Shown here piece after piece: positions 24,177 to 26,916 of a DNA stretch of 54,758 nucleotides (position 1 is the first letter of the stretch; every line of letters starts with the position of its first letter). Both the position numbers and the translations under genes were made by a program. Under the pieces are notes generated by a model that was not told where the DNA came from, did not search any database, and worked only from the letters and a program-made list of their open reading frames with translations. Origin of the DNA: a virus (taxonomy: Duplodnaviria > Caudoviricetes); the IMG/VR virus record IMGVR_UViG_3300005534_000017, positions 1 through 54,758 of that record; one strand, written 5' to 3'.

Positions 24177-25370
24177 TTAGTAAATCTTTTTATTCCACCG
24201 TTTAGAAGTATCCTGTTCCTGGTCATCGTCAGGATTCCTAAGCCATCTAGCCGTTTGCAGCCTTAATAGAACCTGTACCATTGAATCGACGTAATCTCTC
24301 TCACCAGGGAAGCTTACACAGCTTTCCACGAACTCATCCGCTGTCTTTCTAAGGGCATTGAACAAAGGGGGCTTAGCAGCCACCCAGACGCGCCCAGACT
24401 CCAACAAATGGCTAATGACTTGAACTCGAGCGGTCTTATCACCCCATTTATCTGGATTAAAGCCAAATGCCGTAATACCAGCGGCAGAAAAGTCCTGTAA
24501 CAATGAAATGCCAGAGGATTTAGATTCAACCAATACATAATCAGGTTGATGATTACCATCGGGTTCTATTTCGGTATTTCCATCGTCTCGGTAATCGATA
24601 AATAGGCGCTTAGCCATAGCTCTTAATTCTGGATAACCGACCTGACCTCTATAGGCTGATAATAGAATTAAATTTAAATGGTCCCTTTCATCATAGAATA
24701 GCCCCCAGGTTGTACAGGCTGAATAACAGGCTGATTTCTTATCTGATAGTGCCGTATCCCAGGATTGGATAACTTGTATGGTTTCTGGGGGTGATGGTTC
24801 TTTCCACCATTGAAACCATTCTCTTCTAATCATATCCCCATCGGCAGCTCGAGGCCTTTGTTGCAACTGACCGGCAATACGTGTCTCAGTCTTTAAATTC
24901 TTTTTTAAACGTTCTAAACCTTTTTCAGTATAATAAGAAGGACAGAGTATCTCCCCTCGCTTGGTTCTTGGATCTTGCCAAATCTTGCCATTACTCGAAG
25001 GCAAGATAATTGTCTTAGCTCTTCTTTCCGGTTCAAATTCCATGGGAAGAATGACTTTTATCCAATCACCATCAAAATCATGTTTCATTATATGATTGGA
25101 TATATCATCTTCATGTAATCTTTGTTGAACAACTACCATGCAATCGTTATTAATATTATTTAAACGAGTAGACCAAACATTATCCCACCAGTCTATAGCA
25201 TTGCAACGATCTACATCAGATTCAATGTCTTTAGCATTATTAGGATCATCACAATTATGAACCAAAACTCCATTTGCAAAGTAATTCCTATTATCTTTAA
25301 CCTTTATGTTATAAACATAATCGGGTATTGTTTCTACTTTTCTAATAGCTTTGACAATTTTTCTTTCCAT
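24177..25370 (-). CDS. terL: Terminase large subunit, C-terminal precursor (IntC 39 aa plus C-extein 358 aa)
   Basis: VYNIKV..N.NYFANGVLVHN|CDDP junction, then VVQQRLHEDD, QLQQRP, QSWDTA, VESKSSG and D.VDS nuclease motifs; GGAG before ATG 25370. Confidence 0.92.
   Translation of the reverse strand: MERKIVKAIRKVETIPDYVYNIKVKDNRNYFANGVLVHNCDDPNNAKDIESDVDRCNAIDWWDNVWSTRLNNINNDCMVVVQQRLHEDDISNHIMKHDFDGDWIKVILPMEFEPERRAKTIILPSSNGKIWQDPRTKRGEILCPSYYTEKGLERLKKNLKTETRIAGQLQQRPRAADGDMIRREWFQWWKEPSPPETIQVIQSWDTALSDKKSACYSACTTWGLFYDERDHLNLILLSAYRGQVGYPELRAMAKRLFIDYRDDGNTEIEPDGNHQPDYVLVESKSSGISLLQDFSAAGITAFGFNPDKWGDKTARVQVISHLLESGRVWVAAKPPLFNALRKTADEFVESCVSFPGERDYVDSMVQVLLRLQTARWLRNPDDDQEQDTSKRWNKKIY
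25254..25370 (-). other. Split intein C-fragment (IntC), blocks F/G ending His-Asn, +1 Cys
   Basis: MERKIVKAIRKVETIPDYVYNIKVKDNRNYFANGVLVHN followed by C. Confidence 0.9.
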
Positions 25371-26128
25371 AATAATCTTTGCTCCATGCGTCCATGCATT
25401 TTTCCATGACAATACTTACAAAGGGTTATTAAATTATCCTCATTTAAATTTTCTTTATCATAATCAATATGATGAACACATAATAATTTTTTATGCTCCT
25501 CTTCTGTCATACTACAAATCATACATTTATAACCATCTCTATCCCTAATAATCGATTTAAATCTTTTATTCCAGTCAGGAGGATAGGGTCCATCACCATC
25601 CCCATGCATAAACCTTCCATTATTTTTGCCTCTTATATATTTTGAATGACCTAAATCTGCACATTCTCTTGAACAAAAATTTCTTTTTCCAACCTTTCTT
25701 TTAGTTATTCTAATTTCTTTTTTACAATTATGGCAATTATCCAACAAATTTTCATATAAAAAATGATTTTCGCCTTTTAATAATTTATCTCTACAAGACA
25801 AAGAACAGAATCGTTGATTTAATCTACCGGTTTTTTTTATAACAAATTCAGAATTACATACTATGCAATTTTTAGATCTCTTTACACCTTTCCAACTCGG
25901 GTTATTTGAACCAATTTGAAATTTATCAAAGCATGCTCTAGTACAAAAATGTCTTTTAGTTTTTTTAAACTCACCCTTTTTTAGAATGACTTTTTTATTA
26001 CAATTAAAACAATTAAAAGTCCTACATTGTTCCCCCCATTTTAATAAACACTCTTTTCCGCAAAACTTCCTTTTTATTGATGGTTTTGCTTTATATTCTT
26101 TTTTACAGAAAAAACAAATTTTAATCAT
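25334..26128 (-). CDS. Free-standing HNH homing endonuclease with repeated CxxC..FCS.xC zinc modules
   Basis: Four CxxC/RxFCxxxC repeats; C-terminal RD...C..C..VHHIDYDK.N....NLITLC..CH; sits between the intein halves. Confidence 0.9.
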   Translation of the reverse strand: MIKICFFCKKEYKAKPSIKRKFCGKECLLKWGEQCRTFNCFNCNKKVILKKGEFKKTKRHFCTRACFDKFQIGSNNPSWKGVKRSKNCIVCNSEFVIKKTGRLNQRFCSLSCRDKLLKGENHFLYENLLDNCHNCKKEIRITKRKVGKRNFCSRECADLGHSKYIRGKNNGRFMHGDGDGPYPPDWNKRFKSIIRDRDGYKCMICSMTEEEHKKLLCVHHIDYDKENLNEDNLITLCKYCHGKMHGRMEQRLLWKEKLSKLLEK

Positions 26129-26916
26129 AATGTTATAACCACATCTCCAACTTGAATGTCTTTAGCCTGAACATAGCCTTTCCCTTCAATATAAACAGGG
26201 TGCTCTTCAGTACAATAAATTGAACCATCTCCATAATCTATTTCTATAAGTTCTTTACCTTTATTTTTTTCATATTGTAGTATGTGTTTATATTCTAACT
26301 TATTAGTATTATGATTAAAGCTAAGCACATCGCATTTAATCTCATTTTCTACAATTTCGCCTATGTATAAATCTCCTAGATTTGTATTAATAATAGTATC
26401 ATATGGAACGCAGAGAAGTATACTACCACCGTCTCCGGTTGCTGATCCACCTGTACTGGTTGCTATCCTGTATCCTTGCTTTGAATTATCGAATCTATGC
26501 TTAGTATTTTGGTCCTTATCCAACGAAAAGATATGCCCCCATCTTTCCTGATACCATTTACTTTCGATTAACCTGCGGCAAAATCTAGAGTCTCTATTCG
26601 ATATAGCGGCTGAATAGGAAGAGCACATAAACTGTTCATTCGGGTTATGTATCCAGGTCCAAGCAGGCCACATGACCGATATCAAGGTAGACTTTAAATG
26701 CCTAGGCGGCATATTGACCAATAGATTCTTAATTTGACGCTTACTGACGGCTTCTAGATGTTCACAAATGGCCTGTAGATACCATCCATCATAGAAAGGC
26801 TTATTACCCGATACAATAGGCCAAGCCTGTTTAGCAAATTCATAGAAGCTATCCTCAGCCGCATAGACTGCCGCCAGGTAATCAATCGCCTGTTGTTCTA
26901 TAGATAAAGCAGCCAT
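26125..26916 (-). CDS. terL: Terminase large subunit, N-terminal precursor (N-extein 168 aa plus IntN)
   Basis: NMPPRHLKS Walker A, SYS and TG.GG.ILL leading into the intein, which interrupts Walker B (ILL|CDDP). Confidence 0.92.
   Translation of the reverse strand: MAALSIEQQAIDYLAAVYAAEDSFYEFAKQAWPIVSGNKPFYDGWYLQAICEHLEAVSKRQIKNLLVNMPPRHLKSTLISVMWPAWTWIHNPNEQFMCSSYSAAISNRDSRFCRRLIESKWYQERWGHIFSLDKDQNTKHRFDNSKQGYRIATSTGGSATGDGGSILLCVPYDTIINTNLGDLYIGEIVENEIKCDVLSFNHNTNKLEYKHILQYEKNKGKELIEIDYGDGSIYCTEEHPVYIEGKGYVQAKDIQVGDVVITL
26128..26412 (-). other. Split intein N-fragment (IntN, 95 aa)
   Basis: Block A CVPYDTII and block B IYCTEEHPVY (TxxH), ending A.DI.VGD.V then a stop. Confidence 0.9.

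Follow-up and report, generated by a model that had tools for sequence, protein, structure and literature searches.

A terminase gene probably fractured at its Walker B strand by a canonically split intein and a free-standing HNH endonuclease gene

The gene for the large terminase subunit (terL) of the tailed-phage record IMGVR_UViG_3300005534_000017 is laid out in pieces, and here we describe the predicted split intein and the HNH endonuclease gene that lie between its halves. The stretch of DNA analyzed, hereafter called the window, is the whole virus record of 54,758 bases, which is rated 100% complete. At positions 24177-26916 of the minus strand, which holds the structural and packaging genes of the record, lie three overlapping genes, each in its own reading frame. 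The first of them, the N-gene (26916..26125, minus strand, 263 residues), begins with the N-terminal part of TerL, or N-extein (residues 1-168, 26413..26916), which contains a P-loop-like PPRHLKS motif and ends in the hydrophobic strand of Walker B, GGSILL. The frame then continues into the N-terminal intein part, IntN (residues 169-263, 26128..26412), which is 95 residues long and has a Cys at position 1 and the block B motif TEEHP. The end of the gene thus reads GGSILL/CVPYD...TEEHP...VGDVVITL, and a TGA stop codon (26125-26127) is placed directly after IntN. The second gene (26128..25334, minus strand, 264 residues) encodes four CxxC...CSxxC zinc-ribbon-like repeats followed by an HNH core. 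Its ATG forms an ATGA overlap with the TGA of the N-gene, and its 3' end overlaps the start of the third gene, the C-gene, by 37 nt. The C-gene has its own ATG at 25370, with a GGAG 11 nt upstream, and reads MERKIVK...YFANGVLVHN/CDDP. It encodes the C-terminal intein part, IntC (25254..25370, minus strand, 39 residues, block F VYNIKV, block G NGVLVHN), and then the C-extein (24177..25253, minus strand, 358 residues and a stop codon), which carries the Cys at position +1, the acidic part of Walker B (DDP) and an RNaseH-like nuclease domain. The N-gene frame meets 23 stops across the IntN-HNH-IntC cassette, and the C-gene frame 50 stops upstream of the C-gene ATG. An earlier note on this DNA had described the end of the N-gene, an IntN of 95 residues and an HNH gene starting at the ATGA overlap, and all of its statements about the sequence were correct on re-reading.

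The two exteins correspond to consecutive parts of one terminase. Residues 10-168 of the N-gene match the terminase large subunit profiles phrog_38 and phrog_4758 (E ~2e-30), and the C-extein matches phrog_38 (E 4e-38) as well as Pfam Terminase_6C (E 9.5e-8, above the cut-off); the TerL part of the C-gene had no match in the PDB search. On phrog_38 the N-gene covers profile positions 262-407 and the C-gene positions 408-707. Because the profile is matched up to 407 by one gene and from 408 by the other, the insert sits at one exact point in the Walker B strand. Joining the halves there would give a TerL of 168 + 358 = 526 residues with the junction ILL-CDDP, which agrees with the product of about 526 residues that had been predicted before. 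With the intein removed, the protein is an ATPase with P-loop and Walker B followed by an RNaseH-like nuclease, as expected of a Terminase_6-like TerL.

A comparison with intein-less terL alleles had been proposed in the earlier note, and such alleles exist. A scan of viral contigs with the C-half returned four relatives. L002 (61% identity) has a contiguous intein-less TerL of 528 residues that reads FLIADDPND at the site, and L003 (53% identity) has one of 523 residues that reads ILCVDDGNN. A third allele, P0009 from a large protein collection, runs straight on as CDDPNN, so that all three are contiguous across the junction. By a manual count from the alignment, P0009 differs from the intein-bearing N-half P0002 at 6 positions in the first 169 residues. 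Filled and empty sites in a near-identical gene background are the pattern of a mobile element, by way of recent gain or precise loss.

Two further relatives differ at other points of the gene. P0010 (299 residues) is an N-terminal part of TerL that is intein-less at Walker B (FLVADDPNN); about 90 residues past Walker B it ends in a tail like an IntN end (GLIKAQDVVPGDDLIL, then a stop), which may mark another fracture site in this family of TerL. L004 (4414-7107) encodes a more distant TerL (45% identity, 897 residues) with a different intein that contains a LAGLIDADG-like region and is inserted after the P-loop Lys (PPRCGK / ... LIVHN / SSLVSV). By TerL alignment the first residue of that intein would be Pro, not Cys or Ser, and there is a Cys in its block F region, so it is possibly a non-class-1 intein.

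All class 1 catalytic positions are present in the window's two intein parts: Cys1, TxxH, His-Asn and Cys+1. Cys1, the N-terminal nucleophile, is Cys169 and follows GGSILL immediately, and the Thr-x-x-His of block B is present as TEEH; 9 of 9 N-halves compared (the window copy and eight relatives) share C169, T236 and H239. In IntC, the His-Asn of block G and the Cys at +1 are present (LVHN/CDDP), and 5 of 5 C-halves compared share H38, N39 and C40. IntN matched Pfam PT-HINT with an E-value of 4.3e-6 (27.4 bits, cut-off 27.7) and Pfam Intein_splicing with an E-value of 5.6e-4 (20.2 bits, cut-off 35.8), and IntC matched positions 123-155 of the 155 positions of Intein_splicing (E 2e-5, 24.9 bits, same cut-off of 35.8). 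Among solved structures, IntN matches the NrdJ-1 split intein best (E 1e-8) and DnaE inteins next, and the C-gene gave only weak matches, to its IntC part (E 0.01).

Two details of IntC needed closer consideration. The first possible start of the C-gene in the open reading frame (ORF) listing is a TTG at 25412, which would make IntC 53 residues long. The ATG at 25370 is preferred because in four other split loci (L006, L008, L009 and L010) the first Met of the C-half falls at the same alignment position, and this bears out the IntC of 39 residues with its own ATG inside the HNH 3' end that had been proposed. The second detail is block F, where Asp is common at a position occupied here by Asn (VYNI). 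The earlier note had singled out this Asn; it is indeed present, but it is no oddity of this copy, since all five split copies aligned have Asn there. Being common to all five, it is not a private defect. The same position is Asp in the solved NrdJ-1 and His in another matched chain, and therefore varies among working HINT domains.

The split recurs in relatives. With the N-gene as query, 31 proteins were retrieved, one of them from the window itself; 8 of the 30 others are N-halves (P0002-P0008 and P0011). These come from four sources, are 248-295 residues long and align at 44-61% identity over 92-100% of the query. In each of the eight, the N-part of TerL is followed at the same junction by a Cys, TxxH is present, and the protein stops within a few residues of the window's stop. 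In addition, an alignment of N-halves was used to scan viral contigs; out of 553 relatives 80 were kept, and those examined were the 10 with a match extending at least to query residue 255, a set that lies apart from the partial-extension loci L075, L076, L077, L080 and L084. A stop follows IntN in 5 of these 10 loci (L006, L008, L009, L010 and L011). In L006, L008, L009 and L010 both halves are separate genes, and IntC is exactly 39 residues long counted from the aligned Met (M-E/Q-R/S/F...); the Met and the 39-residue length are thus conserved in 5 of 5 split loci, window included. Separate genes, with a real stop after IntN and a start of its own for IntC, are what is expected of a split intein. 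Identity to the window in the split loci is 40-50% for IntN, 46-69% for IntC and 29-46% for the exteins, and the intein parts are at least as conserved as the exteins. Of note, in L011 a 95-residue ORF (5774-6061) downstream of the split N-half ends in the same 11 residues as the IntN end, so that an 11-residue direct repeat brackets some 300 nt of unrelated DNA; no C-half is reached before the end of the contig.

With the HNH gene at 25334-26128, an endonuclease gene lies between the intein halves, as in known fractured genes. Its product matches Pfam HNH with 21.7 bits (cut-off 21.4) and the HNH endonuclease profile phrog_1271 with an E-value of 3e-29, and the core VHH.D...N...N...LC..CH...HG is kept in five full-length copies. 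Homologues occupy the same position in L006, L008, L016 and L059. The gene is single copy in the phage record; elsewhere, 84 matches to the protein include 16 near-full-length homologues at 37-75% identity. From its sequence the protein is a putative homing endonuclease that would cut the element-free allele and promote copying of the element. Consistent with homing are the filled and empty alleles in exteins about 96% identical (P0002 and P0009), the low guanine-plus-cytosine (GC) content of the cassette and its patchy presence in relatives. The GC content is 0.429 in the N-extein, 0.291 in IntN, 0.275 in the HNH gene and 0.407 in the C-extein; the cassette as a whole (25254-26412) has 26.5-29% GC vs 41-43% in the flanking exteins, and in most relatives the intein parts are likewise lower in GC than the exteins.

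The HNH protein might instead be a terminase packaging accessory and not a homing endonuclease. Its gene does lie inside the packaging operon, and Kala et al. are said to have described in 2014 HNH proteins belonging to phage packaging machines. Against this, HNH is absent from the close TerL relatives L002 and L003 and from the mini-intein alleles L007 and L012, its place is taken in L010 by a gene of the GIY-YIG type, and it always travels with the intein. Moreover, four zinc-ribbon repeats joined to a nuclease fit the modular build of homing endonucleases (PMC2677866). We consider an accessory role very unlikely.

The other alleles found at this TerL site show the intein family in several states. 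L006 and L008 have the same three-gene layout as the window, with an HNH homologue of 41-45% identity (tblastn). In L009, a 64-codon HNH remnant (5742-5933), 60-67% identical to the C-terminus of the window's HNH protein, lies between split halves, and its first core His is replaced by Tyr; by its sequence, L009 appears to carry a decaying endonuclease in an intact split intein. In L010 the slot holds a 306-residue GIY-YIG homing endonuclease gene (3475-4395; phrog_5123, E 1.1e-14) that overlaps both neighbours by a few bases, next to an IntC of 39 residues. As judged from this replacement, the endonuclease slot is exchangeable. L007 and L012 contain fused mini-inteins of 147 and 137 residues in one open frame. 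Because the matches to the window's two intein halves lie only 24 nt apart in L012, the break in the window corresponds to the loop that joins the two parts of a mini-intein.

These fused forms also bear on RNA-level splicing, in which the HNH ORF would belong to an intron of group I or group II that is removed from the transcript. There is a precedent, since terL of phage ICP1 is spliced at the RNA level beside a homing endonuclease gene (PMC10448857). In the window, however, the flanks of the HNH gene encode IntN and IntC, which align with the fused mini-inteins of L007 and L012, and no Rfam match was found at E up to 1 over 23900-27500. The likelihood of RNA splicing is practically negligible.

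In three loci the intein is contiguous. L016 (5812-6669) and L059 (5737-6546) have one open frame from N-extein to C-extein, and the same stretch, read in another frame, encodes an HNH homologue. The intein frame is free of stops over its 286 codons in L016 and its 270 codons in L059. When the codon order of the HNH gene was shuffled, the mean number of stops was 17.3 in L016 and 10.8 in L059, and 0 of 2000 shuffles were stop-free, which points to overprinting under selection in these two sequences. L049 (2442-3329, minus strand) has a contiguous intein at the same TerL site with a 295-residue NUMOD4 + HNH_3 gene on the opposite strand; for this antisense arrangement the codon-order shuffle is uninformative, as it keeps the codon register and 2000 of 2000 shuffles had 0 stops.

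The existence of contiguous relatives (L016, L059 and L049) raises the question of an artefact, in which indels from assembly or sequencing would have broken up a contiguous intein whose HNH domain is in frame. The record comes from a metagenome, whose sample may also be the origin of the single run found. However, three frames would need two compensating indels exactly at both gene borders. In addition, the stop and restart recur in L006, L008, L009 and L010 and in the eight N-halves from other assemblies, at 44-61% identity, and HNH is out of frame even in the contiguous L016 and L059. The sequence obtained by a second assembler is the same: of sequencing runs, one of DNA and none of RNA was listed, and a Logan contig from that DNA run is identical over 24000-27100, with 0 differences. 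We regard an artefact as extremely improbable.

The properties of the two halves are those expected of partners. The net charge is -9 for IntN and +4 for IntC, and in four other split loci it ranges from -9 to -14 and from +3 to +6. In a structural model of the IntN-IntC complex the interaction prediction score from aligned errors (ipSAE) was 0.89 in three runs vs 0.01 for the best of 3 controls; the mark applied to this score is reached by 58 of 80 solved complexes and by 2 of 110 mismatched pairs. At least 93% of contacts are shared between the runs, the predicted local distance difference test (pLDDT) value of the partner is at least 82, and IntC threads against IntN in the model. Taken with the fused form in L012, the charges and the complex model indicate that the halves are complementary and able to form one HINT domain.

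An alternative is that the element is decaying: the halves would splice no longer, terL would be dead, and the phage would be defective or reliant on a helper. The Asn in block F and the Pfam intein scores below the cut-offs could be taken in this sense. Against this, Cys1, TxxH, HN and Cys+1 are all kept, and the first three do not vary among the split copies aligned; conservation of the intein parts equals that of the exteins, and the Asn is found in all five of these copies. Furthermore, the record is rated complete, and no second terL was seen in it, the N-gene having one match in the record. Decay of the window's element is therefore unlikely.

The intein halves could also hold the TerL pieces together non-covalently, without ligation, as in assemblies of genes in pieces. 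In phage Aeh1, NrdA is split around an HNH gene and works as two chains (PMC2677866). That case is without an intein, whereas here every splicing residue is conserved, and at the Walker B strand a HINT domain of 134 residues would presumably have to be housed within the core of the ATPase. We give such an assembly only a slim chance.

We hold it highly probable that this locus is a genuine fractured terL, made up of a class 1 intein split at the canonical endonuclease-insertion loop and a free-standing zinc-finger HNH homing-endonuclease gene between the halves, with a mechanism of splicing and homing that we infer. The claim of a naturally split intein of canonical site at Walker B of terL with an HNH gene, made in the earlier note, is upheld by the profile junction, the intein-less alleles, the recurrence, the intein matches and the complex model. 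According to the mechanism that we propose, the three genes would be transcribed together with the late packaging genes, translation of HNH would be coupled at the ATGA, and the C-half would initiate at its own ATG inside the HNH 3' end. The acidic IntN and the basic IntC would then associate into a HINT fold. After an acyl shift at Cys1, trans-thioesterification to Cys+1 would come next, the terminal Asn would then cyclise, and an S-N shift would end the series, the output being a 526-residue TerL in which Walker B is intact. Packaging is probably dependent on splicing, since the break lies in a strand of the ATPase core. The HNH protein, for its part, would cut the intein-less terL alleles of co-infecting relatives, and the IntN-HNH-IntC cassette would then be copied in by repair, a form of collaborative homing.

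Several points weigh against this interpretation. The Pfam intein models score below their curated cut-offs for both halves. The spacing of 11 nt from GGAG to ATG in the C-gene exceeds the ideal. Having Asn in block F where NrdJ-1 has Asp, the intein may be slow or conditional. The pass of the complex model may reflect likeness to, or memory of, solved split inteins. Since the only run found may be the source sample, the Logan contig is not an independent confirmation. Lastly, trans-splicing and homing are both deduced from sequence and model.

A search with IntN of 1.84 billion representatives gave 1986 matches with E-values of 0.001 or lower, 279 of them with values of 1e-10 or lower. In a rough blastp classification of the best 150 of the 1986, 63 fell at the TerL Walker B site, and 79 were left as other or unknown host, some of which may be diverged TerL. 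Among the 63 (from the best 150 of the 1986), 21 end within 20 residues after IntN, some of them perhaps cut by contig ends; 10 are mini-inteins, 22 have a large insert and 10 are unclear. The stages seen at this one site are the empty site, the fused mini-intein, the split intein with HNH, with GIY-YIG or with an HNH remnant, and the contiguous intein with an out-of-frame or antisense HNH gene. A broader reading, which we put forward tentatively and consider possible though somewhat doubtful, is that the TerL Walker B intein is one mobile family seen at one site in every stage of an endonuclease-invasion cycle. The split form with its IntC of 39 residues would then be stable and maintained by selection, with intein and endonuclease homing as one cassette, and not an intermediate of decay.

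The surroundings of the locus contain further genes. The record has a GC content of 35.6% and no tRNA genes. The portal gene lies at 21062-23461 (phrog_1216, E 6.7e-25). Between the C-half of terL and the portal gene, at 23599-24148 on the minus strand, there is a gene pair resembling an addiction module, one gene encoding a Gp49/DUF891 protein (E 2.3e-8) and the other an antidote of the HI1420 type, whose match (E 3.2e-5) scores below the cut-off; in L002 and L003 the portal gene comes about 300 nt after terL, without such a pair. An ORF of 167 residues (26926-27429, minus strand) immediately upstream of terL occupies the place in which one might look for a small terminase subunit; it had no Pfam match at E up to 0.1. 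A blastn search of the 2.7-kb region against 50,697 phage records gave zero matches. A scan for promoters and terminators found 16 and 2 sites vs 19.2 and 2.0 expected from shuffles, and is uninformative on transcription units.

Fractured genes with split inteins are known, as the earlier note had stated. Dassa et al. (2009) described them at gp41, NrdJ, NrdA, IMPDH, DnaE and ligase loci, with IntN parts of 88-105 residues, IntC parts of 33-54 residues and endonucleases belonging to the GIY-YIG and the Vsr-like kinds, and stated that HNH "could" fracture genes (PMC2677866). The window resembles these loci in having two genes per enzyme with split-intein halves and a free-standing endonuclease gene between them, in a break at the usual endonuclease-insertion region with lengths of 95 and 39 residues that fall within the reported ranges, and in an acidic N part and a basic C part; NrdJ-1, the best solved relative of IntN, is itself from that set. 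It differs in its host protein, a TerL split at the canonical point, and in its endonuclease, an HNH protein with zinc-ribbon repeats. The one terminase locus of that study has an unusual split point and a C part of 122 residues (PMC2677866), unlike the window.

AceL-TerL and GOS-TerL are, like the window's intein, naturally split phage TerL inteins from metagenomes with Cys at +1 (PMC11766414). Their short N-fragments, to which the earlier note had rightly pointed, measure 25 and 37 residues, and their IntC parts 104 and 115 residues (PMC11766414), compared with 95 and 39 residues here; because the lengths of the halves differ, so does the split site. None of the 17 solved sequences that IntN matched at E up to 1 is a chain named TerL.

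The arrangement is not as novel as the earlier note had implied: a split-intein PolB in phage MIJ3 (PMC6892783) and the TerL Walker B inteins of mycobacteriophages (PMC5050341) precede it. The putative split intein in PolB of MIJ3 has the same layout of IntN gene, HNH ORF and IntC gene and has blocks A, B, F and G, but its host protein is PolB, its first residue and its +1 residue are both Ser, and MIJ3 is a jumbo phage (PMC6892783). The mycobacteriophage TerL1-e inteins are likewise inserted in Walker B of the terminase ATPase (PMC5050341). They are contiguous and lie in Terminase_1 proteins, whereas the window's intein is split and lies in a Terminase_6-like protein (Terminase_6C); the word "split" is absent from that paper. 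Actinophage inteins with out-of-frame or antisense endonuclease genes (bioRxiv 10.1101/2025.01.02.630785) resemble L016, L059 and L049, and these three loci fit the model, put forward in that preprint, of free-standing endonuclease genes invading inteins. The window would represent the split outcome of such an invasion and not the overprinted outcome seen in actinophage inteins. In the literature searched, with subscription journals and supplements outside its coverage, no canonically split TerL intein with an HNH gene was found. Taken singly, the elements all belong to kinds already known; the novelty lies in bringing together a Terminase_6-like TerL, an insertion at Walker B, the canonical split and a zinc-finger HNH protein, and also in a single intein family that displays the full range of states at one site.

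The finding leaves knowledge of how inteins or terminases work unchanged. If the halves splice, the window holds a natural split intein of canonical length (95 + 39 residues) from a soil-phage TerL, and its relatives at 40-69% identity are candidate orthogonal trans-splicing pairs beyond AceL-TerL and GOS-TerL. DNA packaging, an essential late function, would then be placed behind a bimolecular protein-ligation step. The fused, split and overprinted forms at one site allow the model of Dassa et al., on the emergence of split inteins and the acquisition of endonuclease domains by inteins, to be tested by comparison and not from a single case. Should the reading as one family passing through an invasion cycle be true, the family would serve as a natural test bed for how both split inteins and the endonuclease domains of inteins originated, and would supply several canonical split inteins, diverged from one another, that accept a Cys-Asp-Asp junction.

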